DNA of 64,000 nucleotides, taken from Escherichia coli. GTDB taxonomy: Bacteria; Pseudomonadota; Gammaproteobacteria; Enterobacterales; Enterobacteriaceae. Shown piece after piece: positions 35,779-60,431 of this stretch. Every line of letters begins with the position of its first letter. Position 1 is the stretch's first letter. Both the position numbers and the translations under genes were made by a program. The DNA is taken from the NCBI RefSeq assembly GCF_050320075.1, contig NZ_CP190018.1, one strand, 5' to 3'. Below the pieces are notes generated by a model, which saw only the letters and a program-made list of their open reading frames with translations, was not told the origin of the DNA and ran no database searches.

Positions 35779-35779
35779 C

Positions 35780-37647: not shown

Positions 37648-37995
37648 GTGCGATTCGTGGCTAAATCCCCCGCAGAACGCAAAGCCGCGCAGCGCGCTCG
37701 GCAGTCCGCCGCCGGTGAGCGCAAAATTGAACTGGTGCTGGATAAGCAGGAGCAGGAAATGCTGGAGCGTAACTGTGCCACGCGTCGCCCCGGGCGTGCG
37801 CCTTACGAATTTGGGGAGTATATAGCGTTACTGATCCGCCAGGATGATGCACGCGTGCGCGGGCGTATAAAATCGATTAGCAGAAAACGTTGCGGTAAGT
37901 GCGGCGAGAAAGTTCCCGTTAATTCATGCCCGTGTAATGGTGACTCGCAATGCTGGGTGACTAAAGGCTGGCATGAAACGAAATTAATAGTGTGA
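37648..37995 (+). CDS. zinc-finger protein immediately upstream of the terminase genes (candidate late regulator)
   Basis: 115-aa basic protein with cysteine cluster CGKCGEKVPVNSCPCNGDSQC; stop codon lies inside a GTGACATGTCAC palindrome. Confidence 0.45.
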   Translation: MRFVAKSPAERKAAQRARQSAAGERKIELVLDKQEQEMLERNCATRRPGRAPYEFGEYIALLIRQDDARVRGRIKSISRKRCGKCGEKVPVNSCPCNGDSQCWVTKGWHETKLIV

Positions 37996-38044
37996 CATGT
38001 CACGAGTAGATTATGCATGATGAATTTGATGGGTTTTGAATACT

Positions 38045-38070
38045 GCCGCCAACTATGGCGGCTTTATTTT
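38045..38070 (+). terminator. intrinsic terminator between the early region and the terminase genes
   Basis: Hairpin gccgccaactatggcggc followed by tttatttt. Confidence 0.55.
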
Positions 38071-38113
38071 GCATGGTACTATTACCACAACGGTAACAAT
38101 TACCATGGTGGTT

Positions 38114-38710
38114 ATGATGCCTGCTGAACCTAAAACCTATAAACGCAAATCAACGCAATTTAAGCCACTAACCGCAATGCAGGAGGCTTATTGCCAGTCA
38201 TACATCAAAACGCCTGAAAACCAGACTCAGGCAGCGATTAACGCAGGATTCTCCCCAAATACAGCGGCAGTTAAAGCCAGTGTCATGATGCGCGATGAAC
38301 GCATTCAAAAACGGATTGCCGAGTTGATGGAGGAGCGCAACAAACGAATGCGCGTCAGTGCCGATTACGTTCTCATGCGCCTGGTGGAGATCGACCAGAT
38401 GGACGTGATTGATATCCTCAATGACGATGGGAGCCTTAAGCCAATCCGCGAGTGGCCGAAAATCTGGCGCACTACGCTTAGTGGCTTTGATCTGTCATCG
38501 ACCATCATGAACATGAACGAGGATTCGATAGAGACAATTCTCAAAAAAATTAAATGGCCTGACAAGGTGAAGAACCTCGAACTGATTGGTAAGCACGTCG
38601 ACGTCAATGCATTCAAAGAACGCCTGGATGTTAATGTGAATGTGACAATTGCTGATCGCATAGCGGCAGCCAGGAAGCGACTCAAAGAACGTCAGGATGG
38701 TAATCAGTGA
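38114..38710 (+). CDS. terminase small subunit
   Basis: ORF 38036-38710; start placed at ATG 38114/38117 (MPAEPKTYKRKS...); directly upstream of, and overlapping, the large terminase gene (GTGA). Confidence 0.6.
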   Translation: MMPAEPKTYKRKSTQFKPLTAMQEAYCQSYIKTPENQTQAAINAGFSPNTAAVKASVMMRDERIQKRIAELMEERNKRMRVSADYVLMRLVEIDQMDVIDILNDDGSLKPIREWPKIWRTTLSGFDLSSTIMNMNEDSIETILKKIKWPDKVKNLELIGKHVDVNAFKERLDVNVNVTIADRIAAARKRLKERQDGNQ

Positions 38711-40182
38711 CAGATACAGCGTTATCTCCTGAAGAGCAGTTGATCGAGGATATTGCAGGGTTCACTCACGATCCGCTTGGCTATGCCCTCTATGCGTTCC
38801 CGTGGGGGGAAGAGGGGACTGAACTGGCACATGCTACCGGCCCACGTCAGTGGCAGGCTGATGCGTTCCGAGAGATACGTGATCACCTGCAGAATCCAGA
38901 GACGCGCTATCAGCCGCTTATGCTGGCACGCGCTTCTGGTCACGGTATTGGTAAATCCGCATTCATCTCAATGCTGATCAACTGGGGCATGTCCACTTGC
39001 GAGGATTGTAAGGTCGTGGTGACCGCCAACACCGACAACCAGCTACGAACGAAGACCTGGCCGGAAATTATCAAGTGGTCGAACCTTGCTATCACGAAAG
39101 ACTGGTTTACCTGTACCGCTACTGCGATGTACAGCAATGATCCTGGGCACGACAAGCGGTGGCGAGCTGACGCAATCCCCTGGTCTGAGCACAACACTGA
39201 GGCATTCGCCGGACTACACAACGAGCGCAAACGCATCATCGTGGTATTCGATGAAGCGTCGAACATTGCGGATCTGGTGTGGGAAGTTGCTGAGGGTGCG
39301 CTTACGGACGAAGACACTGAGATTATCTGGGTGGCGTTCGGAAACCCTACACGTAATACCGGGCGTTTTCGCGAATGTTTCCGCAAATACAAACACCGCT
39401 GGAAAACTGCGCAGATTGACAGCCGGACGGTGGAAGGTACTAACAAACAGCAGTTGCAGAAATGGGTTGATGACTACGGGGAAGACAGCGACTTCGTTAA
39501 AATCCGTGTGCGCGGCATATTCCCTGATGCATCTGAATTGCAGTTTATCCCTACCGGTCTTACTGATGAGGCAATGAAACGGGTGGTAACCGCTGCGCAG
39601 GTTGCACATGCTCCGGTGATAATCGGCGTTGACCCGGCATACTCCGGAGTTGATGACGCTGTGATATACCTGCGGCAGGGGCTGCACAGTAAGGTGCTGT
39701 GGACTGGCAACAAGACCACTGACGATCTGATAATGGCGAAGCGTATCGCTGACTTTGAAGACCAGTACCAGGCTGACGCAGTGTTCATCGACTTCGGTTA
39801 CGGAACTGGTCTGAAGTCAATCGGTGACGGCTGGGGTCGTACATGGCAACTTGTTCCGTTCGGTGGCGCGTCTACTGACCCGCAGATGCTCAACAAGCGT
39901 GGGGAGATGTTCAACTCATGCAAGACATGGCTGAGGCTGGGCGGGATGCTGGATGACCAGGAAACAGCAGACGACCTGTCGACGGCAGAGTACAAAGTTC
40001 GCGTGGACGGTAAAATCGTTATCGAACCGAAGGAAGATATCAAGGAGCGGCTTGGGCGTTCGCCGGGTAAAGGCGATGCGCTACTGCTGACGTTTGCGTT
40101 CCCTGTGTCTAAGCGTCTGCGAATTCCCGGGCAGCAGAACCAGCAAGGCAAGGCCATTACAGATTACGATCCCTATGCTTAA
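38707..40182 (+). CDS. terminase large subunit
   Basis: 491-aa ORF with a Walker A-like ATPase region and C-terminal nuclease-like region. Confidence 0.85.
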   Translation: MTDTALSPEEQLIEDIAGFTHDPLGYALYAFPWGEEGTELAHATGPRQWQADAFREIRDHLQNPETRYQPLMLARASGHGIGKSAFISMLINWGMSTCEDCKVVVTANTDNQLRTKTWPEIIKWSNLAITKDWFTCTATAMYSNDPGHDKRWRADAIPWSEHNTEAFAGLHNERKRIIVVFDEASNIADLVWEVAEGALTDEDTEIIWVAFGNPTRNTGRFRECFRKYKHRWKTAQIDSRTVEGTNKQQLQKWVDDYGEDSDFVKIRVRGIFPDASELQFIPTGLTDEAMKRVVTAAQVAHAPVIIGVDPAYSGVDDAVIYLRQGLHSKVLWTGNKTTDDLIMAKRIADFEDQYQADAVFIDFGYGTGLKSIGDGWGRTWQLVPFGGASTDPQMLNKRGEMFNSCKTWLRLGGMLDDQETADDLSTAEYKVRVDGKIVIEPKEDIKERLGRSPGKGDALLLTFAFPVSKRLRIPGQQNQQGKAITDYDPYA

Positions 40183-40272
40183 TCCGTTAGCGGGGATAAT
40201 GACGGAGATATCCTCTGGTGAGGATAAAACAAAGCCAGCTCATCGGCTGGCTGTTTGTGACATGTCACGGTG

Positions 40273-40644
40273 TTATTGCTCGCTTAACTTCTGCTTCAGC
40301 AAGTAACCTTCAAGCATCCAGATTTTGTTTACAGCATTCTGCCGGGCAATCTTCCGACCAATTTCCGCATCAAAGTTTTCCGGGCTTGCACAGGCGCTCT
40401 CTCCGGTGACGGTGAAGCCGTTGCGCAGCACCAGAACGCAGAACGTCAGCAGAGAAAGTGATTCGTGCGGCTGGTAGTTTACCTCTCCGCCAGTATGTTT
40501 CGCTTTTATGGCTACGCCAAAGACACCATCTTCTGCTGTGAAATATGCCTCCTGAGCAATAATGCTCTCGATATGGTCTGGCGTAACGCGCGGCGCGGCT
40601 AAACCTTTAGCCTGAATTTCAGATTCAATGTCTTTGTCACTCAT
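40273..40644 (-). CDS. hypothetical phage protein
   Basis: 123-aa minus-strand ORF inserted between terminase and portal genes; AAGGTGA SD upstream. Confidence 0.45.
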   Translation of the reverse strand: MSDKDIESEIQAKGLAAPRVTPDHIESIIAQEAYFTAEDGVFGVAIKAKHTGGEVNYQPHESLSLLTFCVLVLRNGFTVTGESACASPENFDAEIGRKIARQNAVNKIWMLEGYLLKQKLSEQ

Positions 40645-40847
40645 AGTCTAATCTCACCTTAAAAAAATGCCCGGCGAACCGGGCGAACTGGAAGCAATGA
40701 GTTATGCCTTCCGTGGCTGTACTGGTTTACAGCATGAAGTCATCGCAATGGCGTCCTGCTGTAAAAAGGGCGGTGATAGTCCTTCAAGGGAAACCATCAC
40801 CGCCAAGCACCTGGAACTTCTGGCATCACGGTCCTTAGGCGTGATTC

Positions 40848-40924
40848 TGGCGTGGCATGCAGGATTCGAACCTGCGACCAACCGCTTAGAAGGCGGTTGC
40901 TCTGTCCAACTGAGCTAATGCCAC
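40848..40924 (-). tRNA. tRNA-Arg (anticodon UCU), phage-encoded
   Basis: Manual cloverleaf: acceptor GTGGCAT/ATGCCAC, D-arm GCTC/GAGC, anticodon stem ACCGC/GCGGT, loop CTTCTAA (UCU), T-arm GCAGG-TTCGAAT-CCTGC, discriminator G, CCA encoded; closely resembles host argU. Confidence 0.85.
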
Positions 40925-41352
40925 AACGCTGAGAGCACTTAGCCTGTTAAGTGCGCCACACTTTGTCGCAGCTCCATAAATGCTCTCATCGTTGTACCCT
41001 CGTCTCTTCCGAGGCGTCACACCGAATCGCCGGGATGGTGAATCCCCGTGCGCGGAATAAAACCGCTCGACTTGCACATTCCGGCTACCTGGTTCGTTTG
41101 CCCGAGCAAGGGAGGGTGCCCCTTAAACGTATCCAGACCGCTATCGGCGCATGTGCCATACGCCGTACTGCTCAAAATAAAAGCTCACTCCACCTGTTCA
41201 ATTTAACGACAAGCCAGTCAGGTTAATAACCGGAATGAACCATTTACTTACCTGAAAGGTAATAATTCGTGCGTTAAATGTCAACTACCTACGATAAATA
41301 AATCATATGTGGTTAAATTGGTAATAATTTAATTGCGTACGGAGTCATTGAT

Positions 41353-41559
41353 ATGTGCATGGGTAGCTCACCATCAGTGCCTGCAACACCAGAAGTTCAG
41401 GCAGCACCACAGGAGCAGGATGCCGCCGTTGTTGATGCCCGCGACGAAGAAACACGTCGCCGTCGCGCTGCTGCTGGTCGTAGTTCTACGCTGCTTACCG
41501 GTTCTCAGGGCGACACATCAACTGCTAATACCAGCGGTAAAACGCTGCTTGGTCAGTAA
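41353..41559 (+). CDS. hypothetical small protein
   Basis: 68-aa ORF just upstream of the portal gene with the same SD context (ggagtcattga-ATG) as the portal gene. Confidence 0.4.
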   Translation: MCMGSSPSVPATPEVQAAPQEQDAAVVDARDEETRRRRAAAGRSSTLLTGSQGDTSTANTSGKTLLGQ

Positions 41560-41573
41560 CCGGAGTCATTGAA

Positions 41574-43253
41574 ATGGCGGAAACAACTAAAGAGCGATTG
41601 AGCAAACAGTTCGCACAACTTGAAAGCGAGCGTCAGTCGTTCGAGCCGCACTGGCGCGAGTTGAGTGATTACATCAACCCGCGTGGTTCCCGCTTTCTGA
41701 CTTCTGAGGCCAACCGTAACGATCGGCGCAATACACACATTATTGATTCGACCGGGACTATGGCGGCGCGCACTCTCGCCAGCGGCATGATGTCAGGCAT
41801 CACAAGCCCCGCGCGTCCGTGGTTTCGCCTGGCTACGCCAGATCCTGAAATGATGGATTATGGCCCTGTTAAGTTGTGGCTTGAGGCGGTGCAGAACCGC
41901 ATGAACGATATGTTCAATAAGTCGAATCTCTATCAGTCGCTGCCGCAGTTATACGGAAGCCTCGGCACATACAGCACCGGTGCAATGGCGGTACTGGAGG
42001 ATGATGAGGACATCATTCGCACAATGCCATTCCCGATAGGCAGTTACTACCTGGCTAACTCACCTCGTGGCAGTGTTGACACCTGTTTTCGCAAGTTCTC
42101 TATGACTGTTCGTCAGCTTGTTCAGGAGTTCGGGCTAAATAACGTCAGCGAATCCGTAAAAAGCATGTGGGAAAGCGGCATCTACGAGAAGTGGATTGAC
42201 GTGATGCATTCGGTTTACCCGAACATTGACCGCGATACATCGAAGCTGGATAGCAAGAACAAGCCATTCAAATCGGTTTATTACGAGGTTGGTGGCGATA
42301 ACGACAAGTTGTTGCGTGAGTCCGGATTCGATGAGTTTCCAATTATGGCTCCGCGCTGGGAAGTTAACGGTGAAGATGTTTATGGATCATCATGCCCGGG
42401 CATGCTGGCGCTTGGACCTGTTAAGGCATTGCAGCTTCTCCAGAAGCGCAAGTCGCAGTTGATTGATAAAGCCACCAATCCGCCGATGGTTGCTCCGACT
42501 TCCCTCAAGAATCAGCGCGCCTCCCTTCTTCCTGGCGACATCACGTATATCGATCAGATTACTGGTCAGGATGGCTTCAGGCCTGCTTATCTGGTTAACC
42601 CCAGTACAGCAGATTTGGTGGCAGACATTCAGGACACTCGTCAAATCATTAACAGCGCCTACTTTGTCGATCTGTTCATGATGTTGCAGAACATCAATAC
42701 CCGCTCGATGCCTGTTGAAGCGGTGATCGAAATGAAAGAAGAAAAACTTCTGATGTTGGGGCCGGTTCTGGAGCGTCTGAACGACGAATGTCTTAATCCT
42801 CTCATTGACCGCGCTTTCTCGATGATGGTGCGTAAAAACATGCTGCCGCCACCGCCTGACGCGATGGAAGGCATGCCCCTGAAGGTCGAATACATTTCCG
42901 TCATGGCTCAGGCGCAGAAGTCTATCGGCCTGTCCAGTCTGGCGTCCACGGTTAACTTCATTGGTCAACTTGCGCAAGCGAAACCAGAAGCTCTCGACAA
43001 ACTCAACGTTGATCAGGCGATCGATGCATTCGCTGATATGTCCGGAGTGTCTCCAACCGTCATTGTTCCGCAGGAACAGGTTGAGCAGGCTCGCCAGCAA
43101 CGGGCACAGCAGCAACAGCAGCAACAAATGATGGCGATGGGGATGGCGGCGGCACAGGGGGCCAAGACGCTAAGCGAAGCTAAAACTTCGGATCCGAGTG
43201 TTTTGTCAGCTATGGCGAATGCAGTTAGTGGTCAGGGTGGGCAATCACAATGA
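41574..43253 (+). CDS. portal protein
   Basis: 559-aa ORF downstream of the large terminase and upstream of scaffold and capsid; size and Q-rich C-terminal tail typical of podovirus portals. Confidence 0.7.
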   Translation: MAETTKERLSKQFAQLESERQSFEPHWRELSDYINPRGSRFLTSEANRNDRRNTHIIDSTGTMAARTLASGMMSGITSPARPWFRLATPDPEMMDYGPVKLWLEAVQNRMNDMFNKSNLYQSLPQLYGSLGTYSTGAMAVLEDDEDIIRTMPFPIGSYYLANSPRGSVDTCFRKFSMTVRQLVQEFGLNNVSESVKSMWESGIYEKWIDVMHSVYPNIDRDTSKLDSKNKPFKSVYYEVGGDNDKLLRESGFDEFPIMAPRWEVNGEDVYGSSCPGMLALGPVKALQLLQKRKSQLIDKATNPPMVAPTSLKNQRASLLPGDITYIDQITGQDGFRPAYLVNPSTADLVADIQDTRQIINSAYFVDLFMMLQNINTRSMPVEAVIEMKEEKLLMLGPVLERLNDECLNPLIDRAFSMMVRKNMLPPPPDAMEGMPLKVEYISVMAQAQKSIGLSSLASTVNFIGQLAQAKPEALDKLNVDQAIDAFADMSGVSPTVIVPQEQVEQARQQRAQQQQQQQMMAMGMAAAQGAKTLSEAKTSDPSVLSAMANAVSGQGGQSQ

Positions 43254-43546
43254 CAGATTACGAAGACGATCAACTGAAAGAAGAAAACGCCCGTAAGCAA
43301 CGTGACATGGCACAGCGTGAAATTGATGACATTCGCTTTGTCATGAGCTGTGAACAGGGGCGTCGGGTTGTCTGGTCGGTACTGGAGAAAGGCCGTGTGT
43401 TTTCCGCTATCTCGCCGATGGACGCTATGGCAATGGCATTTAATGAGGGGCAACGCAATCTGGCGCTGGAACTGTTTCAGCGCGTTATGGCGCATTGCCC
43501 TGAACAGTATTTGAAGATGGCCAAAGAGGCCAGTGAACAGGAGTGA
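43250..43546 (+). CDS. hypothetical head-assembly protein
   Basis: 98-aa ORF coupled between portal and scaffold genes. Confidence 0.45.
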   Translation: MTDYEDDQLKEENARKQRDMAQREIDDIRFVMSCEQGRRVVWSVLEKGRVFSAISPMDAMAMAFNEGQRNLALELFQRVMAHCPEQYLKMAKEASEQE

Positions 43547-43549
43547 TCA

Positions 43550-44244
43550 TGAATTTATTTGAGCGTTTGCTGTATAGCCGTCTTTGCAATGAGCAACCAG
43601 TCGATGGTGGAGCAGCTCCGGCTGCGTCAGAACCGTCAGCGCCTGCAGGTGATAACCCTGCTCCAGTTGGTGATCCATCACAACAGGAAGGTGATAAGCC
43701 ACAACCTGTTGCTGATGGCGATAAACCTGCTGATGACAAAAAGCCTGAAAACGATAAGCAGGATGAAAAAAAGGACGGCGATAAACCAGAGGGTGCGCCT
43801 GAGAAGTACGAGTTTCAGGCTGCCGAAGGCGTAGAGCTGGATACAGAAGCGTTGAAGGAGTTCGAGCCGGTGGCGCGAGAACTTAACCTGACCAACGAGC
43901 AAGCGCAAAAGCTGGTTGATGCTTATCCGAAAATTCTGGCAGGTGTTCAGCAGCGCCAGGCAGAAGCCTGGCAGAAAACAACCGAGCAGTGGGCTGCGGA
44001 TGTAAAAGCTGACAAAGAAATCGGTGGCGACAAGTTGATTTCTAACCTTAGCGCCGCACAGCGTGCGCTTGACCAGTTCGGGACACCTGAACTCAAAGAA
44101 TATCTGAACACCACCGGGCTGGGTAATCACCCTGATCTGGTCAAAACGTTCGTGAAAATCGGAAAGGCTATGTCTGAAGATGGCATGGTCACCGGTGGTA
44201 ATGAAGGCCAGCGTAGTGCGGCCGAAGTGCTCTATGGCAAATAA
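43550..44244 (+). CDS. scaffolding protein
   Basis: Acidic, helical, low-complexity protein immediately upstream of the major capsid gene; ATG 43550 with AGGAG SD. Confidence 0.6.
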
Positions 44245-44258
44245 GAGAGGAGATAACA

Positions 44259-45245
44259 ATGTCTGTTAAAGGCTTAACTGCGCTAACGCTGGCTGACTGG
44301 GGTAAGCGCGTCGATCCAAATGGGAAAGTCGATAAGATTATCGAGCTTCTCAATCAAACTAACCCAATTCTTCAGGATATGCCTTTTGTTGAAGGAAACC
44401 TTCCTACCGGACACCGAACCACCATTCGTTCTGGTTTACCTTCTGCTACCTGGCGTTTGCTGAACTATGGCGTACAGCCAAGCAAATCAACCACAGTGCA
44501 GGTCACCGATTCCATTGGCATGCTGGAAACCTATGCTGAAGTCGATAAGTCTCTGGCTGATCTGAACGGTAATACTGCCGAATTCCGTCTGTCTGAAGAC
44601 CGAGCATTTATTGAAGCGATGAATCAGGCGATGGCGCAGACACTGTTTTACGGTGATTCCAGCGTTAACCCTCAGCAGTTTATGGGACTGTCCTCCCGCT
44701 ATTCCAGCCTGTCTGCGGGTAATGCTCAGAACATCATTGATGCTGGTGGCACGGGTACAGATAACACTTCAATCTGGTTAGTGGTGTGGGGCGAAAACAC
44801 CGTGCATGGCATCTTCCCGAAAGGACAGAAGGCTGGCATTCAGATGGAAGATAAAGGCCAGGTGACACTGGAAGATGCTAAAGGCGGCAAGTACGAAGGT
44901 TATCGTACCCATTATAAGTGGGACAACGGGCTGACATTACGTGACTGGCGCTATGTAGTTCGTATCGCAAACATTGATGTCAGTAATCTTGACGCTCCTT
45001 CTACTGCCGCGAATATCGCAAAACTGATGATTCGTGCCCTTCATCGAATCCCAAATCGTGGGATGGGACGTCCTGTTTTCTACATGAACAGAACCATTAA
45101 CGAAGTGCTTGACCTGCAATCTCTGGAGAAGAGTTCTCTGGCGATCAGCGTGAAAGAGACAGAAGGCGAATGGTGGACAGCACTTCGTGGTGTGCCGATT
45201 CGTGAAACTGACGCACTTCTGGAAACAGAAGCCCGCGTGGTGTAA
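44259..45245 (+). CDS. major capsid protein
   Basis: 328-aa ORF following the scaffold gene with a strong SD (GAGAGGAG); size and position typical of an HK97-fold capsid protein. Confidence 0.7.
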   Translation: MSVKGLTALTLADWGKRVDPNGKVDKIIELLNQTNPILQDMPFVEGNLPTGHRTTIRSGLPSATWRLLNYGVQPSKSTTVQVTDSIGMLETYAEVDKSLADLNGNTAEFRLSEDRAFIEAMNQAMAQTLFYGDSSVNPQQFMGLSSRYSSLSAGNAQNIIDAGGTGTDNTSIWLVVWGENTVHGIFPKGQKAGIQMEDKGQVTLEDAKGGKYEGYRTHYKWDNGLTLRDWRYVVRIANIDVSNLDAPSTAANIAKLMIRALHRIPNRGMGRPVFYMNRTINEVLDLQSLEKSSLAISVKETEGEWWTALRGVPIRETDALLETEARVV

Positions 45246-45296
45246 CGCCTGTTATTAACCTGTGGGCCGCAACAGGCCCACTAATGGAGAAAGAAG

Positions 45297-45734
45297 ATGA
45301 TCACCGACAAACTGTTGATGTTCTCCGAAGCACAGGCGGTAACTGATACCGCGGCTTCTACTGACGTAATCGATCTCGGTCCAATTGACGGAAACCGTCG
45401 CGATATCGGTGTGGGTTACCCGCTTGAGTTTTGGGTGCTGGTTAACGAAGCCGCCACGGCAAGTGGTGAGGCAACTGTAAACATCCAGTTGCAGACGAGT
45501 GAGAATAACAGCTCATGGTCCACTATTTATGATAGTGGCGCACTGGCAAAGGCCACCCTGACAGCAGGTAAGCGAGTTGTTTCTGCAAAGGTGCCTGCCG
45601 GTGTTCAGCGATATCTGCGTGTTAACTACTCCGTCGCAACTGGCCCACTAACGGCTGGCAAATTCACTGCGGGTATCAATCTTGATGTTGATGCCAATAC
45701 GCCGTATCCGATCCGCTCAAAAGTAACTGGTTAA
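45297..45734 (+). CDS. hypothetical head protein (possible decoration protein)
   Basis: 145-aa ORF immediately after the capsid gene. Confidence 0.45.
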   Translation: MITDKLLMFSEAQAVTDTAASTDVIDLGPIDGNRRDIGVGYPLEFWVLVNEAATASGEATVNIQLQTSENNSSWSTIYDSGALAKATLTAGKRVVSAKVPAGVQRYLRVNYSVATGPLTAGKFTAGINLDVDANTPYPIRSKVTG

Positions 45735-45744
45735 GGTGATATTG

Positions 45745-46080
45745 ATGTCAGGTGAGAAACCAAGATACCGCGTTCTGCGCCTCTCTCATATCCATAACAC
45801 TCTGTGGCCGGAGGGGGCAGAAATCGAATACGAAGGTGAGCCTGGTAGCGCACTGGAACCTGTTAACGATGCAGCCAGACAGGCAAAAGCAAAAGTTGCA
45901 GGAAAGGTGTCAATGGCAGCAACCAGCACCAAAATCATCAACGATGTGTCAGATGATGGTGAACTGGATAAGCTCCGTGAAGAGTACGAATTGCTCTTTA
46001 ACGAGAAGCCACACCATAACGCCAAAGCCGAAACGCTCCGCGAGAAGATCGCAGATAAGCGTAAAGAACTGGGCGTGTAA
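45745..46080 (+). CDS. hypothetical virion-associated protein
   Basis: ORF 45736-46080; ATG 45745 with AAGGTGA SD; followed by a terminator. Confidence 0.45.
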   Translation: MSGEKPRYRVLRLSHIHNTLWPEGAEIEYEGEPGSALEPVNDAARQAKAKVAGKVSMAATSTKIINDVSDDGELDKLREEYELLFNEKPHHNAKAETLREKIADKRKELGV

Positions 46081-46096
46081 GCCTCGCGAATCAGAC

Positions 46097-46118
46097 AAGG
46101 GGCTTCGGCCCCTTTATT
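46097..46118 (+). terminator. intrinsic terminator between head and tail modules
   Basis: Hairpin ggggcttcggcccc followed by tttatt. Confidence 0.55.
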
Positions 46119-46136
46119 GCAGGAGTATAGAAACTT

Positions 46137-49213: not shown

Positions 49214-49677
49214 TGATCGATGTTCAAATTATTCCCGCTACCGAAGAGCATCTTCAGATGATTTTGCCGGATGTTCGTCAGGCTGATATTGACGAACTGT
49301 ATGCGGTATCACTGATGACTACCGAAGATGCGCTGCGTGTTGGTCTGCGTACTGCGACTATGGCCTGGTCAGGATTTGCGAACGGAGAACTGGTAACCAT
49401 GTTTGGTGTATCTCCGGCGTCAATGATCGGTGGCAATGGTACGCCCTGGCTGGTCGGAACCAGCCGTATTGAAAAATATCAGAAGACATTTCTTCGCCAC
49501 TGCCGCCCTGTATTGCAGCAGATGCTGGCAGTTTATCCGCGCCTGGAAAACTACGTCGACGAGCGAAACCATGTTGCCAAAGCATGGCTGCACTGGCTTG
49601 GATTCAGGCTTGAAGAAGCCGCGCCTTATGGTGCTCTTGGTCTTAATTTCCACAGATTTCACATGGAGAGAAAATAA
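49213..49677 (+). CDS. hypothetical internal virion protein
   Basis: 154-aa ORF coupled to neighbours in the tail/ejection module. Confidence 0.4.
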   Translation: MIDVQIIPATEEHLQMILPDVRQADIDELYAVSLMTTEDALRVGLRTATMAWSGFANGELVTMFGVSPASMIGGNGTPWLVGTSRIEKYQKTFLRHCRPVLQQMLAVYPRLENYVDERNHVAKAWLHWLGFRLEEAAPYGALGLNFHRFHMERK

Positions 49678-50222
49678 TGTGCGATCCGGTTATTGCTGGT
49701 GGCGCAATGCTCGCCATGAGTGGCATTCAGGCATACACCCAGTACCAACAGGGAAAGTATGCCTCGAAGGTTGCAGAAGCGAACGCAGATATAGCCACAG
49801 CTCAGGCAAATGATGCAATAAACAGAGGTAACGCTGAAGCTGAGCAACGGCGCAGAGAGACCCGACAGCGGCTTGGTACACAGGCGGCGACAATGGGGGC
49901 TACCGGCGCTGATTTATCTACAGGTAACGCGCTGGATATATTTGGTGACACTGCTCAGTTTGGCGCTCTTGATTCGCTAACGACGGTGAATAACGCGCAA
50001 CGCGAGGCTTACGGTTATCAGGTTCAGGCTGCCAACTATAAAGCAGAAGCCAGATCAGCCCGTAAACAGGGGAATGTGGGAGCAGCAACAACATTGCTCA
50101 CTGCGCCTCTGAAGGCATACGGTGCGTACCAGATGTTTGGTGGGACGTGGAGTCCGTTTACTCAAAGCACTCCTGCGCCAATCGGGGCAGCAGCAGGAAC
50201 CAGATTACCCGGAGGATTATAA
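49677..50222 (+). CDS. hypothetical internal virion protein
   Basis: 181-aa Ala/Gln-rich ORF coupled to neighbours. Confidence 0.4.
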   Translation: MCDPVIAGGAMLAMSGIQAYTQYQQGKYASKVAEANADIATAQANDAINRGNAEAEQRRRETRQRLGTQAATMGATGADLSTGNALDIFGDTAQFGALDSLTTVNNAQREAYGYQVQAANYKAEARSARKQGNVGAATTLLTAPLKAYGAYQMFGGTWSPFTQSTPAPIGAAAGTRLPGGL

Positions 50223-52843
50223 TGCCAGTCGTACCAACAGTATCCGGACGTCAGGTTGAGAGCCGTGGAGTTCAGTCAGCAGGCTTGCAGATGTTTTCTC
50301 AGCCAGGTATTGGTGATGCTTTTGTTCTGGCAGGGGCAGAGGCTATTGATGTTCTGGGTCAGGCAAAACAGCGTGCCAATATTGCCTTGGTTCAGGAGGC
50401 ATCCCTTAAACTCAGTCAGACAGGCAGCGATCTGCTGAATAACCCTGAAACAGGTTTGCTTAACCTGAAAGGGAAAAATGCTATTGGAAAAGGTCAGGAG
50501 TATACGCAGCAGTTTGATGCTCAGGTCGAACAACTGGCTATGTCGCTGCCGGATGAACAGGCTCGTAATGCTTTCATGCAGCAGGCGCAGCAGCAGCGCA
50601 TTCAGTTCACTACGCAGGCCGGGAGGTACGAAATAGGACAGGTTCGCCAGTATGAGGCGGATATGCAGGATGCGACACTAAAAAACCTATCGATGCAGTT
50701 CCGTAACCCGACAATGGCAAACCAGGCAGGATTGAAGGCATATCATAGCATCATCGCTTACGGAGAAGCCCACGGCCAGAGTCAGGAAGAGATCGAACAG
50801 AACTGGGTTTCGTGGCGCGAGAATGCCGCGAACGGTGCGGCGGAGGCGTGGTATGTGCCGATGTATCAACAGATGATGGGTCCGAACGGCAAGATTGAGG
50901 TAACCGATACACCGAGTGAGGCGCAGTTATTCTCTGCAATAATCTGGCAGGAGAGTGGCGGAAATCAGTACGGAAAGGACGGAACACCTCTGGTGTCGCC
51001 AAAAGGCGCTGTTGGCGTAGCGCAGGTGACGGAAGATACTGGCCCCGAAGCTGCCCGCCTTGCTGGCGTGCCGTGGGACCGCGATAAATGGTTGAATGAC
51101 CCGCGCTATAATGCCCGCTTGGGGCAAGCTTATTTCGGCGCGCAGATGAAGAAATACGACAATAACCCGGTTCTGGCAGTAGCTGCCTATAACGCTGGCC
51201 CAGGAAAGGTTGACGGCTGGATTAAACAGATTGGCGATCCGCGCACAGGCGAAGTCAGTAACGCCCAGTTTGCCGCAGCTATCCCATACGACGAGACGCG
51301 CAATTATGTGGCAAAAGTAACTGGCAGTGCTGGAGCTATTCCTGGATCTGCGACGATGGAAAACCTCATCGCACAGCCATTCTGGAACGCCATGAGTCCG
51401 GACAAAAAGTCGCAGATGATGAGCAAGGTTGCTGGCATGTACGACATGCAGGCTTCAGCCGGTCGCGTTGCGCTACAGAGTCGAATGCAGGACGACCTAT
51501 CCAAAATTGAGGCCGGTAAGCAGGTGACGCCTATTTCAGCGCACGAATGGGCCGCCGTTATGCCGCTTCAGGCAGCGCCTGCCGAGCGCCTGCAGATGGA
51601 AAAAACCTTCCAGCAATACCAGCAGGCAATGACGCTACAACCTGTTTATCAGACCATTATGCAGGGCAACGTCCAGCAGGGTACCGCCGCCGTGCAGGCA
51701 ATGGCACCGCAGGAAAACGACCCTGACTTTAAATACAAAGCAGAGCTTTATGCATCGGCAAAGGTCAAGCTTGGGCAGGTACTGAAGGCGCGGGAAGCGG
51801 ATCCGGGGGCATGGCTGCAACAAAACTCTCCGGTTGTGCAGGCTGCATTCCAGCAGTACCTGAATGACCCTTCATCTGGTGAATACCTAGTTTCCCGCAT
51901 ACAGTCTGAAAAAGACCGCCTGGGGATAATGAGCAAAAAAGTTTTACCGGAGTCCATGGTCAACGACGTACTGCAGCGTATTGACAACACGCAGGAATCT
52001 AGCGTAAAGGCCATTCAGTCGGTGGCGCAGTCGTTCGGCAAATACTCGGATCAGGTGATGCGGCAGGTGCAAAATAAAGCATTCCCAGCTTTAAAGGTTG
52101 TAATGTCTACAGAAAACCAACGGGCAGCAGATGCGTTGTGGCAAATACGGAATGTACCTACTTCTGATTTGAGATCTGGTTTGGATAAAAACCAGGCAGA
52201 CAGTGCAGACTCATCGTGGACAGATCAATTTAAAGATTTTTCTTCAACTCTTATTCCTCAGAGAAATGGTGCTGAAAACTGGACTATTTATAACGAGCAG
52301 GGAAAACGCTTGACCTACAACTACATGCAGCGCGGAATGTCGGCGTCTGATGCAGCAAAACAGGCGTATCAGGACCTTCTCGGCGAGCAGTACCAGACCA
52401 ATGGCACTTGGCGGCTACCTAATCGTGCAGGGGTAGATATTCGTGACGTTAACGATGGTGCCAATGCGTATCTGAAAAACCTGTCAGCAGATCAGATTAT
52501 GCCGCTTATTGGTGACCCAAGGCTACCTGATGAGGTCAACCGTGAGCAGAGTATCTCCCGCATTCGTGATAATGCGCAGTGGGTTACCAACAGCGACGAA
52601 ACAGGACTTACCCTGATGCTCAACGGGCTGATCGTCAACGGTGCCGACGGCAACTCGATTACGGTGACGTTCAACGATCTGGCGAAACTGGGAACAACCA
52701 ACCGATCAGTATGGAACCGCATTACCAAGTTCATTGATACTCCGGTGAAATATACTCCCGGACAGTCTAAGGAATACAGCGCAGAAAGTCAGCGCGACAA
52801 CCTGATTAACATTTTCCAGAACGGCCAGCAATCAGGACGATAA
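50222..52843 (+). CDS. internal virion/ejection protein with lytic transglycosylase (SLT) domain
   Basis: ORF 50147-52843; start placed at ATG 50222; SLT motifs ...WQESGGNQ...GAVGVAQVT...AYNAGPGKV. Confidence 0.75.
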   Translation: MPVVPTVSGRQVESRGVQSAGLQMFSQPGIGDAFVLAGAEAIDVLGQAKQRANIALVQEASLKLSQTGSDLLNNPETGLLNLKGKNAIGKGQEYTQQFDAQVEQLAMSLPDEQARNAFMQQAQQQRIQFTTQAGRYEIGQVRQYEADMQDATLKNLSMQFRNPTMANQAGLKAYHSIIAYGEAHGQSQEEIEQNWVSWRENAANGAAEAWYVPMYQQMMGPNGKIEVTDTPSEAQLFSAIIWQESGGNQYGKDGTPLVSPKGAVGVAQVTEDTGPEAARLAGVPWDRDKWLNDPRYNARLGQAYFGAQMKKYDNNPVLAVAAYNAGPGKVDGWIKQIGDPRTGEVSNAQFAAAIPYDETRNYVAKVTGSAGAIPGSATMENLIAQPFWNAMSPDKKSQMMSKVAGMYDMQASAGRVALQSRMQDDLSKIEAGKQVTPISAHEWAAVMPLQAAPAERLQMEKTFQQYQQAMTLQPVYQTIMQGNVQQGTAAVQAMAPQENDPDFKYKAELYASAKVKLGQVLKAREADPGAWLQQNSPVVQAAFQQYLNDPSSGEYLVSRIQSEKDRLGIMSKKVLPESMVNDVLQRIDNTQESSVKAIQSVAQSFGKYSDQVMRQVQNKAFPALKVVMSTENQRAADALWQIRNVPTSDLRSGLDKNQADSADSSWTDQFKDFSSTLIPQRNGAENWTIYNEQGKRLTYNYMQRGMSASDAAKQAYQDLLGEQYQTNGTWRLPNRAGVDIRDVNDGANAYLKNLSADQIMPLIGDPRLPDEVNREQSISRIRDNAQWVTNSDETGLTLMLNGLIVNGADGNSITVTFNDLAKLGTTNRSVWNRITKFIDTPVKYTPGQSKEYSAESQRDNLINIFQNGQQSGR

Positions 52844-52844
52844 C

Positions 52845-54542
52845 ATGCCAATTTACACAGATGATCCGGGACAGGGCATTAACCAGCCAATTGGCAACGC
52901 GCCAGCAGGGCTTGGCGAATCGCTGCTTTCTTCCCTTAAGCAGGGATTTGAAGAGGGGCCGGTCATGTCCGGCTACCGCTTTGCGCAGGTCGACTCGCTG
53001 GCGAATGACCCAAACTCTACAGTTATCAGTAAGCAGGACGCAGATGAGCTCCTGAAGCAGTACGGCGTAAAGAGCATAAACGTGCCAGATTCTGGCGTTA
53101 CGCAGGCTTTTCTCGATCATGTTATTGCCGAACGCAAAGATTCTCTGGCACGCCAGCAGATTGCGATGTCGGCACCGAGCGGGTGGGTAGCCACGCCGCT
53201 TAATTTCGCAGCCAGCCTAGCTGGTTCAATGGCAGATCCTGGTAACGTGGCGCTGGCGCTGGTTCCGTTCGCTGGAGAAGCAAAGGCAGCTTCTGTGCTT
53301 GGCCGATTTGGCGAGCGATTTGTTGCGGGTGCACGCATGGGGGCAGCGCAGGCGGTGGTGACCGTGCCGTTTACCGGGCTGGCAGCGGCGGCGGAAGGTG
53401 ACGACTTCACCTATAGCAACGCGTTGGAAAGTACTTTCTTTAACACGATGGCTGGCGGTCTAATGCATGCCGGCGGCGGCCTTATCGCCGATATCGTGCG
53501 ACCGCGTCGCGTTCCCGATGCTGCAACGGGAGAGTCCCCGGCGTTTTCTGGCGATGCGCAGCCAACCCCGGTGATAACGCCTGACAACATTCCGGCGGGC
53601 GTGAATATCCCTGAGGTTGGCGCTAACGCAGATCTGGCGGCGGCCATTTCCAGTGAAGCGGAGAGCTACGCATACAGCCGGGCTTATGACGACGTGGTTC
53701 CTGACTATATGGCGCGCCAGCAGGAGTTACAGAGCGGACAGATCGGTAACGTTGCCGACCTGCGTGCCGAGCTTGCGGCTAATCAACGTCATGCTGACTC
53801 GCTTGATGCGACTCTGCAGCAGCGCACCAAAAAGTATCAGGGGCAGCGGATGAAGTTTAAGGATGCGCGCTCTAGGGCACTGAAAGAGATTCAGGCCGAG
53901 AAAGACGCCATCGCTGCACGCAATCAGGAGATCAACACATCGCTGGAGCAGAACGCGACAGCAGAGCAGGCGCGCTGGCACCAGTCTCAGATTTCCCGCG
54001 GCGAGATCCCCGACGACCTGAAAGTCACCATTTCCGAGCGTGCGCAGCAGATCCTGGACGGCATGCAGATGTCGCCGATCGCTGGCGCAGTTCGCACTGC
54101 CGCAAGCGCCATCAGGGATGCTGACTGGAGCGTGAACCAGCAGGCGTATCGCGCTGCGCTGGCACACATGATGGAAGGACGTAGCCCAGATGTTGAGCCC
54201 TTCTATGAACTGCACAAATCGGCACTGCGTGAACGCGCCATCCATCGCATACAGAACCCGGCACGGCAGGTTGATGAAACGGCTCGCCCAGTAAGCGAAA
54301 CAGCCGATCGGGTTTATCAAGAAACGCAAAAGGCAGATCATGAAATTACCGCTGCCGCTGCAGACCTTGATAACGAGCTCAACCTGAGTAACGCCCTGCT
54401 TGACGATATCGCTGTCGATAACCCTGATCTTGCGACCACGTTGCGCCAGAAACTCAATGATATTCGTGCCGACGCCAGCGACAATAGCATGAGCAACGCT
54501 TTCCGGGCATTTGCCGCCTGTATGATTAACCGGGGGATGTGA
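52845..54542 (+). CDS. internal virion/ejection protein
   Basis: 565-aa ORF in the ejection-protein block. Confidence 0.45.
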   Translation: MPIYTDDPGQGINQPIGNAPAGLGESLLSSLKQGFEEGPVMSGYRFAQVDSLANDPNSTVISKQDADELLKQYGVKSINVPDSGVTQAFLDHVIAERKDSLARQQIAMSAPSGWVATPLNFAASLAGSMADPGNVALALVPFAGEAKAASVLGRFGERFVAGARMGAAQAVVTVPFTGLAAAAEGDDFTYSNALESTFFNTMAGGLMHAGGGLIADIVRPRRVPDAATGESPAFSGDAQPTPVITPDNIPAGVNIPEVGANADLAAAISSEAESYAYSRAYDDVVPDYMARQQELQSGQIGNVADLRAELAANQRHADSLDATLQQRTKKYQGQRMKFKDARSRALKEIQAEKDAIAARNQEINTSLEQNATAEQARWHQSQISRGEIPDDLKVTISERAQQILDGMQMSPIAGAVRTAASAIRDADWSVNQQAYRAALAHMMEGRSPDVEPFYELHKSALRERAIHRIQNPARQVDETARPVSETADRVYQETQKADHEITAAAADLDNELNLSNALLDDIAVDNPDLATTLRQKLNDIRADASDNSMSNAFRAFAACMINRGM

Positions 54543-57091
54543 TGGCAGCAAACGAATTTTTGACGCAGTGCGAGCGCAGTGTAAATGCTGCCGCTGGTCG
54601 CGAGCTTTCTTCCGATGAGATGGAGTCGCTGGTGCGTGACATGAACGACACCACTAGGCGAATTCTGGCGACCAATGAGGCGCTGTCTCTGGAAGAGGCC
54701 GCGATGCGCGCAGCGGAAGAACTGAGCAATGCCGATATGCTGGCAAAACAGATTGAGTCCCGCAATAAGGCAATCAACACCCGTATTGCCGCACAACGAC
54801 TTAGAGAGCTTCGTACTATCTGGAAAGACCGCCCGGATATCGGGCTTGAAGCAATGCTGGTTGGCCGCAACGATGCGCGTACCGGCGCCCGCCGGTCGGT
54901 ATCTTCGGAGGTGGCGCAACTGCGCGGCAAGTATCATTCCGGTATCAACTACGATTTTGACCGTGCCGGGCTGGTGCAATTCATCGCCAGCGGCAGCAAT
55001 GACAGGGAAATTGCCGATGCAATGTGGCGCATAGGGCGCGGGCAGTCAACTGACGGTATGACAAGGCAATCCGTAAGCGCTGCACAAATCATCATGAAAT
55101 GGCAGGAAACTGCGCACATTGATGAGAACCGCGCCGGGGCATGGATACGCAAAGAGCCGGGCTATATAGTGCGCCAGTCACACGACATCATGAAGATCCG
55201 CGCCGCAGGTTATGAAGCATGGCGAAATGCTATTCTCCCGCGCCTTGATGAGCGCACTTTTGACGGCGTGGCTGACCGCGAGCAGTTCATGCGTAACATT
55301 TATAACGGGCTGGCTTCCGGCGTGCATCTTACATCTGAAAAGCCCGATTGGATGAATGGCTTTAAGGGATCGGCGAACGCAGCTAAACGCGCCAGCCAAG
55401 AGCGAATTTTGCACTTCAAAGATGGTATCTCGTGGCACGAGTACAACCAGCAATTCGGCACCGGCAGCCTGCGAGAGGCGCTGTTTGGTGGCTTAAACAG
55501 CGCTGCCCGCACAACGGGCATGATGCGCGTACTGGGCACTAACCCACAGAACATGTTTAAGTACCTGACGGACACCATTGCTGAAGATATCAGCAAATCC
55601 GGAAGACCGGCAGCGTTGGCTGACTACATGACGAAGGTGCGTCGCATTAACCGTACCGTAATGCCGCAGGTTGACGGCTCGCTAAATATTCCTGGCAGCG
55701 TAGGCTGGGCCAATGCGTCGGCGGCTGTACGCGGCTGGTTGCGTATGAGCCAGCTTGGTGGCGCGGTAATCTCATCGTTTAACGACGTGCCTATCGCCGC
55801 TACCGAGATGCGCTACCAAGGGCAGAATTTTATGCAGGCGTTGCTTGGTGCTATGAGAGGCCGCTTCACGCGTTACAACAGCGCGGAGCAGAAAGAGATC
55901 CTTTCCTCTATCGGAGTTTATTCCGACTCCATGACGCAGGAAATCATCCGGCGTATATCTGGTGATGACACGCTGAATGGAAAACTTGGTCGCGCGCAGC
56001 AGCTTTTCTTTAAGTACAACCTCATGAACTTCTGGACCGAGAGCGGTCGCAACAGCAACGCCATGATGATAACCAACTGGCTTGCAAAGAATGCTGACCA
56101 GCCTCATGCGCGGCTACCGGAAGACCTGCGACGCGTGCTGGATCTGCACGGTATTGGCGAACGTGAGTGGGAAATTTTTCGCAACATGGACATGGCCGAT
56201 AGCGAAGGTCGTAAGTTCATGACGACCAGCGGCATCCGCGGCGTGCCTGACGAAGTGATTGCCGGTTATGTAGAGAGTAAGGGGATCAAGCCAACGCAGC
56301 GCGCTATCGCTGACGCACGCGATCAATTGGAAGGGCAGTTGCGCGGCTACATCCTTGACCGCCTGAATATCGCCATGTCAGAGCCTGGCGATCGCACGCA
56401 GGCGTTTATGAAGATGGGCACGGTGCCAGGAACGGTGGCTGGGGAAGCAATACGATTCGCTGGTCAGTACAAATCGTTCACTGCAAGCTTCATGCAGAAC
56501 GTACTAGGACGCGAAGTATTCGGGCGTGGTTATATTCCTGCTGGGCTTGGTGAGTCGAAAACCGGATCGCTGACGAATGCTCTGCTGCGTAACGGGAAGG
56601 GGGCTTTCCTTGGTGCTGCAAACCTCTTTGTCTGGGCGACTATGTTTGGTTATATCTCCATGCAGTCAAAACTCATGCTGAAAGGGCAAACACCACGCCC
56701 GGCAGATGCCAAGACGTTTCTCGCAGCCGCATCTCAGGGGGGCGGTCTTGGCATCTTGGGTGACTTCATGTTTGGCGAGGTCAACCGCATGGGGGCCGGG
56801 CCGGTTACGTCGCTAATGGGACCGGCAGCATCGAACGCTGACAGCATTATCACGCTGCTCCAGCAGACCACGAGAGGGGATGCAGATTTGGGTGACTGGT
56901 ATCGCACGGCACTTGACAATACGCCATTCCTCAACGTGTTCTGGCTTCGTACGGCGATGAATGGTTTAATATTGAACCGGATACAAGATGCCCTTGACCC
57001 AGGCTCTCTTGAGCGTTATCAGCGCCGTGTTGAGCGTGAGCAGGGTAACGAATTTCTGATCCCACCATCGCAGTTCATGCTAGGGAAGTAA
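54542..57091 (+). CDS. internal virion/ejection protein (large)
   Basis: ORF 54539-57091; ATG 54542 overlaps the upstream stop. Confidence 0.45.
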   Translation: MAANEFLTQCERSVNAAAGRELSSDEMESLVRDMNDTTRRILATNEALSLEEAAMRAAEELSNADMLAKQIESRNKAINTRIAAQRLRELRTIWKDRPDIGLEAMLVGRNDARTGARRSVSSEVAQLRGKYHSGINYDFDRAGLVQFIASGSNDREIADAMWRIGRGQSTDGMTRQSVSAAQIIMKWQETAHIDENRAGAWIRKEPGYIVRQSHDIMKIRAAGYEAWRNAILPRLDERTFDGVADREQFMRNIYNGLASGVHLTSEKPDWMNGFKGSANAAKRASQERILHFKDGISWHEYNQQFGTGSLREALFGGLNSAARTTGMMRVLGTNPQNMFKYLTDTIAEDISKSGRPAALADYMTKVRRINRTVMPQVDGSLNIPGSVGWANASAAVRGWLRMSQLGGAVISSFNDVPIAATEMRYQGQNFMQALLGAMRGRFTRYNSAEQKEILSSIGVYSDSMTQEIIRRISGDDTLNGKLGRAQQLFFKYNLMNFWTESGRNSNAMMITNWLAKNADQPHARLPEDLRRVLDLHGIGEREWEIFRNMDMADSEGRKFMTTSGIRGVPDEVIAGYVESKGIKPTQRAIADARDQLEGQLRGYILDRLNIAMSEPGDRTQAFMKMGTVPGTVAGEAIRFAGQYKSFTASFMQNVLGREVFGRGYIPAGLGESKTGSLTNALLRNGKGAFLGAANLFVWATMFGYISMQSKLMLKGQTPRPADAKTFLAAASQGGGLGILGDFMFGEVNRMGAGPVTSLMGPAASNADSIITLLQQTTRGDADLGDWYRTALDNTPFLNVFWLRTAMNGLILNRIQDALDPGSLERYQRRVEREQGNEFLIPPSQFMLGK

Positions 57092-57092
57092 T

Positions 57093-57464
57093 ATGAACAG
57101 AATTATATTAATGATTATTCTTATGCTTTTAGCTGTAAAATCTTTTGCAGATACTACCTCACCGTTAATGATTCAGCCTAAAAATGGGGAAACACTGGAG
57201 GACTCTAAAAAGCATACAATGGAATATTTTGGATGTATAAAAGGGCAGGCCGTAAAATACGCTAAGACAGGAGAAAGTGTTGATTCTATATCCAAAGCTT
57301 CGGTTGTGTCATGCGAGTCGTACATACAAAAGATTGCTGAATCAAATATATACTATTTAAATTCCTCTCAAGACGGTAAGCGGAAATTTATTGGAAGGCT
57401 TAAATCAGATGGTGAAAATTTAGCAACGAAATTTGCTATGGATGAAAAGCTAAAAAATAAATAG
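57093..57464 (+). CDS. secreted protein of unknown function (moron)
   Basis: 123-aa ORF with N-terminal signal peptide MNRIILMIILMLLAVKSFA; conspicuously AT-rich coding sequence. Confidence 0.5.
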   Translation: MNRIILMIILMLLAVKSFADTTSPLMIQPKNGETLEDSKKHTMEYFGCIKGQAVKYAKTGESVDSISKASVVSCESYIQKIAESNIYYLNSSQDGKRKFIGRLKSDGENLATKFAMDEKLKNK

Positions 57465-57471
57465 GTGACAC

Positions 57472-57768
57472 ATGCAAGCGATAGGATTCATTGTTTATAT
57501 CGTCGTTGGTCTTTTTCAGTTGGCAGCAATTATGGCTGGGCTTGAATCATGGTGGGGATTGCACTGGATAATTGCAGCCCCCATTGCTTTCATCGTGAGC
57601 TATATTCCATTTGTTGGAGCGATTGTTGGTATGGTTGGTGCTGTGGATGTATGGCGGTGGGAGTGGTGGCAGGCTGGCCTTCTCTTCTTTGGTGGGATCA
57701 TCTTTGCTATTGTCTGCGGTGGAATGTCATCATTTTTCGAACGGCTATCATTCAGAAAAGGAACGTGA
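57472..57768 (+). CDS. small inner-membrane protein (moron)
   Basis: 98-aa ORF with three hydrophobic helices; AGGTGA SD; stop codon inside a GTGACATGTCAC palindrome. Confidence 0.5.
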   Translation: MQAIGFIVYIVVGLFQLAAIMAGLESWWGLHWIIAAPIAFIVSYIPFVGAIVGMVGAVDVWRWEWWQAGLLFFGGIIFAIVCGGMSSFFERLSFRKGT

Positions 57769-57800
57769 CATGTCACAGGCCGCTTTCGCGGCCTTGTTTT

Positions 57801-58871: not shown

Positions 58872-58977
58872 TCGACTTTACCAATCGGGTAATTTTAAAC
58901 ATGAGTATAATGCTTTTAACTGCAACGAGTGTAAACAATTATTGATAATTGTAGGCACATCCCTGTGCCGCCGCCCG

Positions 58978-60250: not shown

Positions 60251-60431
60251 GCAATAACTGTATATTTATACAGTATCAAATAATTTGTTTGCTATCCAGC
60301 ACGTTTTGCAAATTACCTGAAAGGTAATATCTATTCATATTCACAGTCTTTCTATCCATATATGGTTTTTTGGGTAATAGAATAACCAGATATGCGGCGC
60401 AACGGGTGCTGCGACTATCTGGAGATTTAAC

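Follow-up and report, generated by a model that had tools for sequence, protein, structure and literature searches.

A small phage gene and the palindrome at its stop codon: a probable operator shared by epsilon15/phiV10-type prophages and unrelated temperate phages

A 64-kb stretch of Escherichia coli DNA (the window, whose coordinates are used below unless a phage record is named) carries a phiV10/epsilon15-type prophage in which the perfect 12-base palindrome GTGACATGTCAC occurs exactly three times, at 37992-38003 (site A), 40257-40268 (site B), and 57765-57776 (site C). The question raised by this locus is what recognizes such a repeat. The three copies compare with 0.01 expected per window, and three or more were reached in 0 of 100 shuffles, so an earlier sequence-only reading of the window was correct, in its coordinates too, that three identical palindromes are far beyond chance. 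The host part of the window (26 kb) contains zero copies. When up to two mismatches are allowed, a single further match appears in the window, at 43302, with one mismatch and within a gene, and it is not conserved in epsilon15 or SPN1S. A search for the half-sites with spacers of 1-6 bases returns only the three 12-mers. A truncated copy had also been claimed at 35769-35779. The sequence concerned, ATGTGACATGA, really lies four bases off, at 35773-35783; it is a TGA/ATG stop-start junction that has only GTGACATG in common with the motif. Since GTGACATG-type 8-mers outside the three palindromes also occur at the chance rate (3 in the window versus 2.2 expected), the supposed copy is meaningless.

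The palindrome is, on balance, probably the cognate recognition site (operator) of the 112-residue protein encoded at 37657-37995, whose stop codon lies inside site A. This reading is based on a symmetric site of 12-14 bp, conserved half-sites, a clade-specific centre, mostly intergenic placement, linkage of site and gene, and a predicted dimeric DNA-binding fold. The binding itself and its consequence are what we infer from the conservation, the gene linkage, and the fold.

The motif, in the general form GTGAC-NN-GTCAC, travels with gene 37657-37995. Homologues at 28-65% identity are found in phages of quite different architecture, including N15, a P2-like Yersinia phage, the myovirus ZF40, a lambdoid phage, and Vibrio phages, and in these phages a site is present at or near the stop codon of the gene, with one or two copies elsewhere in the genome. 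A palindrome with 10 specified bases is expected by chance once per ~1.05 Mb. N15 has GTGACTGGTCAC over the stop codon of gene 46 and two more copies, and the P2-like Yersinia phage has GTGACGCGTCAC over the stop. The site lies 3 nt past the stop in ZF40, which has two further perfect copies, and 7 nt past the stop in the lambdoid phage Chlobot. Public assemblies provide homologues at 28-38% identity, among which L091 and L092 have the site over the stop. Moreover, there are three copies in 14 kb of L090, two tandem copies 23 bp apart in L097 and L098, two copies within 14 kb in L099 and L100, and three copies in Vibrio phage K303 (L102; homologue of 33% identity). Phage BcepC6B has an epsilon15-like structural module and a different gene before terS, and the motif is absent from its 25 kb. 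Some of the further copies are found inside genes (ZF40, N15 repA) or in terS leaders; in our own tally from annotations, ~19 of 25 sites from the diverse lineages fall between genes or over a stop codon. The co-occurrence of the same gene with the motif across unrelated phages upholds the earlier suggestion of a protein recognition site with the zinc-finger gene as its partner. That gene had been placed at 37648-37995; the gene and its stop are right, and homologues put its start at 37657. A coding constraint from the C-terminus of the regulator is ruled out as the reason for the sequence, because the site lies 3-230 nt past the stop in ZF40, Chlobot, L090, and K303.

At each of the 27 sites, a pyrimidine precedes the 12-mer and a purine follows it, which extends it to a symmetric 14-bp motif. 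The full motif is 5'-Y GTGAC NN GTCAC R-3', and NN is AT in the phage group of the window; the three window sites differ in the outer base flanking the 12-mer. Even at 28% protein identity, and in podovirus, siphovirus, and myovirus backbones alike, the half-sites are retained, and the central dinucleotide tracks the clade of the protein, being AT at 10/10 sites of the epsilon15/ZF40/Chlobot clade and TG/CA at 3/3 N15 sites. The ACATGT core proposed from the window alone is therefore not the conserved part of the motif, as its central two bases vary between phage lineages.

Some of the distant sites stand in recognizable surroundings. In N15 (L008), the site at 28550-28561 is intergenic, upstream of the antirepressor operon (genes 32-30) and ~115 nt before an annotated terminator, and the two tandem sites of L097 are just past a Bro-N gene; a link of the sites to antirepressor control is possible in these two phages. 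In phages with an HNH gene and a Terminase_4 gene, a site lies 11-31 nt before the terS start (L090 13026, L099 14095, L102 23214). This terS-leader site is part of a block shared by these phages (AAATAAGATCTTTTTTT...) that follows the HNH gene and is possibly the cos region.

Conservation of the palindrome within the genus Uetakevirus is stricter than that of its surroundings. The identical 12-mer is found at three equivalent places in epsilon15 (39612, 2142, and 19517), and at all three in SPN1S and Tyrion. Phage 65FD has the three equivalent sites with one mismatch at B, and phiV10 has intact sites B and C and one mismatch in site A (C-to-T, GTGACATGTTAC). The phiV10 RefSeq record (L001) starts in the middle of site A (39101-39104 plus 1-8), and the palindrome is invisible in the linear record. 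This placement of the genome end inside the palindrome is a numbering convention, the record simply beginning past the last stop codon. The terminase DNA is only ~80% identical and the site flanks are unrelated. In alignments of 132 bp around the sites, the palindrome forms an invariant island, which at site C also includes the adjacent terminator stem. At site B, the terminator stems have changed by compensatory substitutions while the 12-mer is invariant. An invariant 12-mer beside drifting terminator stems points to purifying selection on the palindrome sequence itself.

The same three places were followed in 80 related viral contigs. In 76 of them, site A is found at offset -1 relative to the stop codon; of the other four, two carry a single mismatch and two are truncated there by the end of the contig. 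About three quarters of the contigs have site B, and 51 of the 60 contigs that carry the last large structural gene have site C, both of these counts being drawn from partly clonal contigs. Site C lies 157-1894 bp downstream of that gene, depending on the intervening cargo, and only a 62-bp island containing site C and its terminator matches phiV10. In the ~16 of 80 contigs lacking site B, the whole cassette after terL is replaced, and three others have single-base variants of the site. The replacement exchanges the terminator, site B, and the Phage_gp49_66 cassette for AT-rich cargo of at least two kinds on the opposite strand (L012, L023, L036, L037, L051, L075, L083, L086, and others), and it begins at the terL stop codon, outside the palindrome. 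The sequence-only reading had held that the sites flank inserted blocks. The variable cargo around B and C, visible in the 62-bp island and in the cassette swaps, agrees with this in part, and no recombinase or nuclease is associated with the sites. From these comparisons, the sites look like conserved functional anchors between exchangeable cargo, not recombination or homing scars. One sub-lineage (L117, L120, L127, L133, L134, L139, L149, L151) has an extra site, GTGACCTGTCAC, whose centre differs; it falls within the coding sequence of the large virion protein, 2488 nt short of where the last structural gene ends.

The protein encoded beside site A is epsilon15 gp49, phiV10 p55, and N15 gp46, and belongs to PHROG 536. 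Its sequence has no match in Pfam (even at E 10), NCBIfam, or the PDB. When 59 family members are compared with Pfam, only single matches at E 0.03-0.07 to RHH_5, RHH_1, and RepB-RCR_reg are obtained, none amounting to significant membership in a ribbon-helix-helix (RHH) Pfam family. The family is small: clustering at 50% identity gives 148 clusters among 1.8 billion representatives, and every one is named 'hypothetical' or a generic 'transcriptional regulator'. Its hosts are almost all Enterobacterales, Vibrio, and Aeromonas, and it is carried by temperate phages of E. coli, Salmonella, Klebsiella, Yersinia, Pectobacterium, and Vibrio. In the family alignment, a basic segment at the N-terminus (ERKxAQRxR) is followed by a short hydrophobic strand, two helices, and the pattern C-x2-C-G-x2-L-P...C...G-D-x2-C. 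The AF2 monomer model (pLDDT 88.7) contains the strand-helix-helix core of the RHH fold. In a glycine-linked tandem model (pTM 0.68), which is a prediction only, residues 22-28 and 159-165 are beta strands, as an RHH ribbon would require, unlike in the monomer. The protein is thus predicted to be an RHH dimer with a basic N-terminal helix and a C-terminal four-cysteine zinc knuckle. Foldseek gives only weak RHH matches in the PDB, and only uncharacterised family members are returned from AFDB50. The best three PDB sequence-profile matches are to TraR (two distinct sequences) and YbiI, over the C-terminal half and at E ~0.05; membership in the TraR/DksA group is marginal and serves as a lead only. 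Literature searches on the 12-mer, the protein family, N15 gp46, and SPC32H returned no description of the motif or the family, and in the records of epsilon15 and phiV10 the terminators nearby and the repressor operators are annotated but the palindrome is not.

The surroundings of the three window sites suggest what a bound protein could do. The regulator gene (37657-37995, plus strand) is the last gene of the early-right operon. Its TGA (37993-37995) lies inside site A, upstream of terS, and 41 nt past the site is the intrinsic terminator of the operon (38045-38062, plus strand; GCCGCCAACTATGGCGGC then TTTATTTT), the equivalent of a stem-loop annotated in epsilon15 at 39646-39672. Site B separates terL from a convergent accessory gene of the Phage_gp49_66 family (N4 gp49/Sf6 gene 66) at 40273-40644 on the minus strand (Pfam PF13876, E 3.3e-35; PHROG 322). 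On that strand the site is 4 nt past the stop of the accessory gene, with whose cassette it moves, and 4 nt before a terminator hairpin at 40233-40252, which is canonical on the minus strand (then TTGTTTTAT) and whose stems covary between genomes in the alignment. Site C is at the 3' end of the morphogenesis operon, where the genes upstream differ in other genomes. Here, the last gene (57472-57768, plus strand) is variable cargo encoding a protein of 98 aa (PHROG 3075), and its TGA (57766-57768) is inside the site. The intrinsic terminator of the operon (57777-57794, plus strand) directly abuts site C, and its stem is invariant and its loop variable in six genomes. Two features read from the window are therefore accurate, namely the overlap of two copies with stop codons and the hairpin beside site C. 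The overlap at site C is incidental, because it is found in the window prophage only; in phiV10, SPN1S, and Tyrion the stop precedes the site by 2-8 nt.

On the strand of the canonical terminator, the order at A, B, and C is site and then hairpin, with gaps of 41, 4, and 0 nt. Three terminated units are delimited in this way: the early-right operon, the Phage_gp49_66 cassette, convergent with the terminase genes, and the morphogenesis operon. In the proposed mechanism, one symmetric RHH dimer would occupy each palindrome of 12-14 bp. The gene and its sites form a co-inherited module, with one site kept at or beside the 3' end of the gene, often sharing the TGA, and one or two elsewhere, mostly intergenic. 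The bound protein may then modulate RNA polymerase at unit boundaries by insulation, as a roadblock, or by controlling read-through. Such boundary control would couple the build-up of the last early gene product to packaging and late gene expression. Control at unit boundaries is favoured because all three sites in the genus lie just 5' of unit-ending terminators. The output of binding may differ between phages, since this terminator geometry is not found in other lineages and the Vibrio-type site lies 11-31 nt before terS.

Several observations weigh against the operator reading or restrict it. Two divergent homologues, on L093/L094 (short contigs) and L095/L096 (20 kb), are without the motif in their available DNA. 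Site B, and less often site C, is lost in otherwise near-identical phages, which makes these two sites dispensable. It is unusual for an operator to lie 3' of, or at the end of, the gene for its own protein, and the Vibrio-type position before the terS start fits a roadblock or RNA role better than promoter control. A termination-related mechanism is at best genus-specific, because terminator adjacency is seen at 3/3 sites here and at only ~1/21 sites in other lineages; as a family-wide rule it is ruled out by the same count. Finally, another phage or host protein may be the true ligand.

The most obvious host ligand would be MatP. The matS site is GTGACRNYGTCAC (PMC6907758, Table 2), and MatP binds DNA through an RHH dimer (PMC12756933). 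The half-sites GTGAC and GTCAC are identical to those of matS, and GTGAC-AT-GTCAC is matS minus its central N. If MatP or another host protein bound the sites, the phage would engage or evade the chromosome-organising machinery and the linkage to the phage gene would be indirect. The near-confinement of the phage protein family to Enterobacterales, Vibrio, and Aeromonas is in line with this explanation, as these groups are approximately the MatP-bearing clade. K303 additionally has one canonical 13-bp matS-type site, GTGACACCGTCAC (L102 6763-6775), beside its three 12-bp sites; the chance expectation of such a site is ~0.006 per 24 kb. On the other hand, the spacer is 2 bases (12 bp) instead of 3 (13 bp) in 27/27 phage sites, and a rigid dimer normally loses binding when the spacing of its half-sites changes by one base. 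Moreover, a host ligand leaves the tight linkage to a phage gene unexplained, the central dinucleotide follows the clade of the phage protein, and the prophage at guaA is outside the Ter region. Binding by MatP is thus unlikely. A function in RNA is distinctly unlikely. In that case the transcript segment GUGACNNGUCAC would be a protein-binding or processing signal for translation of the next gene or for the adjacent terminator, for example as the target of a zinc knuckle, as in Mu Com, or of an RNase. Many copies immediately precede a ribosome-binding site with its start codon (N15 gene 47, the gene downstream in Chlobot, and terS in L090, L099, and K303), sites B and C adjoin a terminator hairpin on the transcribed strand in this prophage, and a palindrome reads alike in RNA of either strand. 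However, a stable RNA hairpin is ruled out, as the hairpin alone is very weak at -1.2 kcal/mol. The stems are invariant, with no compensatory changes, and it is the 'loop' bases that vary. The symmetric Y/R extension with 5+5 half-sites is typical of DNA recognition by a dimer, and the N-terminal domain of the linked protein is predicted to adopt a DNA-binding RHH fold.

The remaining explanations assign the sites to DNA exchange, DNA packaging, or chance. Linkers at recombination junctions, or targets or remnants of homing or site-specific insertion that brought the cargo, would account for the variable cargo immediately beside sites B and C and for the occurrence of gene and site as a cassette in unrelated phage backbones. 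Nevertheless, no nuclease or recombinase domain was found in the linked protein or its neighbours, including Phage_gp49_66. The sites are intact perfect palindromes instead of half-sites or scars, the breakpoint of the cassette swap is the terL stop codon and not the palindrome, and extra copies are found inside genes or in terS leaders. The 12-mer is also invariant beside terminator stems with compensatory drift. The junction, recombination, or homing remnants suggested by the sequence-only reading are accordingly very unlikely. The sites could also be accessory packaging signals at which the protein marks the terminase region, as a pac or cos accessory factor. They bracket terS-terL in this genus, and the Vibrio-type site precedes terS in a conserved block after the HNH gene. 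Yet no site lies near the terminase genes or cos in N15, ZF40, the P2-like phage, or Chlobot, the terminase small subunits are of different families across the phages that carry sites, and site C is 19.7 kb from terS; this explanation appears slightly less probable still. A chance repeat, or an ordinary site for a CRP-type host regulator, is of practically negligible probability. TGTGA/TCACA-like pentamers do arise where the Y/R flanks are T/A, and these had been read as a CRP-like half-site pair. CRP needs TGTGA-N6-TCACA, whereas the pentamers here are 4 bases apart and only Y/R, not the outer T/A, is conserved outside the 12-mer. Chance alone is contradicted by the 0.01 copies expected and by the conservation of the sites across genera. 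A role as operator of the prophage repressor was rejected, as that operator is of the epsilon15 type, ATTACC-N5-GGTAAT, and is found elsewhere in the window. Mimicry of a sigma-70 -35 element (GTGACA) is not supported; the sites give promoter-like matches at background, which are lost with other central bases.

A less conventional form of the operator reading, to which only a small probability is given, sees in the gene-site pair no ordinary repressor but a phage version of systems that organise chromosomes or target polymerase. In a MatP/matS-like arrangement, the RHH protein on its near-matS sites could bridge or mark phage DNA or compete with host MatP. Alternatively, the zinc module, weakly similar to TraR/DksA, could act on RNA polymerase just before terminators, and the pair could form a sequence-addressed device for termination or antitermination.

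The wider prophage provides the setting for these sites. The host genes guaB (22923-24458) and guaA (24527-26104) are followed by the phage integrase (26297-27547), and the DNA from ~26.2 kb to the end of the window is a podovirus prophage of the genus Uetakevirus inserted at guaA. It is 95-98% identical to several E. coli phages, and for the relative ZX5 integration is reported at the guaA 3' end (PMC9782041). The variable region between the terminase and portal genes contains a tRNA-Arg (anticodon TCT; 40848-40924, minus strand) flanked by two minus-strand terminators (40804-40769 and 40684-40669). The terS start annotated in phiV10-type records (TTG, 38036) would enclose the terminator at 38045-38062 and repressor operators (region 38004-38044); the true start is probably downstream of 38036, as in epsilon15, where terS has 198 aa. 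ATTACC-N5-GGTAAT, annotated as the prophage-repressor operator in epsilon15, occurs in 10 copies in the window with up to one mismatch, versus 0.05 expected, at 31321-31399, 32095-32111, 34426-34504, 38081-38115, 41247-41263, 58877-58893, and 60312-60328. The copies are in the immunity region and also just upstream of terS (a tandem pair), the portal operon, the tail-fibre gene, and the minus-strand gene 58055-58603, which is probably of the antirepressor type. Since operators lie directly upstream of late units, the prophage repressor appears to control these units directly.

If the operator reading is right, an orphan protein family that is unnamed yet widespread gains a concrete candidate DNA target. 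The three sites become candidate control points for separating and timing the early, packaging, and morphogenesis units in epsilon15/phiV10-type phages, for which, to our knowledge, the timing and separation of transcription units have not been worked out. phiV10 and related phages serve in the typing of E. coli O157 and as reporter phages for it, and their genomes include serotype-converting genes. The near-identity of the sites to matS also makes cross-talk with the organisation of the host chromosome conceivable. RHH regulators that have palindromic sites are a known kind; the unusual elements are the zinc knuckle added to such a regulator, the site kept at the 3' end of its own gene and often sharing the stop codon, and the matS-like half-sites, invariant even among very divergent phages.

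Among known systems, the small RHH repressors (P22 Arc, Mnt, CopG, R1 CopB/RepA2, and the TacA/ParD antitoxins) have the fold, small size, and palindromic targets in common with the phage protein, which also has their basic N-terminal arm, of the ERKxAQRxR type. The operators of these repressors are at their own promoters, whereas the phage site is at the 3' end of the gene with others kilobases away, and the zinc knuckle is an addition of the phage protein. The arrangement also resembles lambda-type Q and its QBE site, being the last early gene, directly before the packaging and late genes, with a DNA site and a terminator within ~70 bp. The protein has no similarity to the Q families, and the regulator homologue is not the late switch of ZF40, N15, and Chlobot because these phages carry a Q-like gene besides it. 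Compared with DksA and TraR, a long helix and a CxxCGxxhP zinc motif can be aligned (TraR, YbiI; the marginal matches above). The cysteine spacing differs, being C-x2-C-x8-C-x7-C in the phage protein and C-x2-C-x17-C-x2-C in DksA/TraR, and the DksA/TraR Pfam model PF01258 is not detected in any of the 59 family members. As for MatP, comparison of the family profile with E. coli MatP by hhalign detects no homology (E 0.13, probability 0.5%), and E. coli K-12 has no matS-like site beside matP itself. The phage protein lacks the N-terminal four-helix bundle and the C-terminal coiled coil of MatP and has the basic helix and Cys4 zinc knuckle instead. What the two systems share is the RHH core, which alone superposes in a structure comparison, and a few sites that are scattered along the replicon and not clustered at one promoter.

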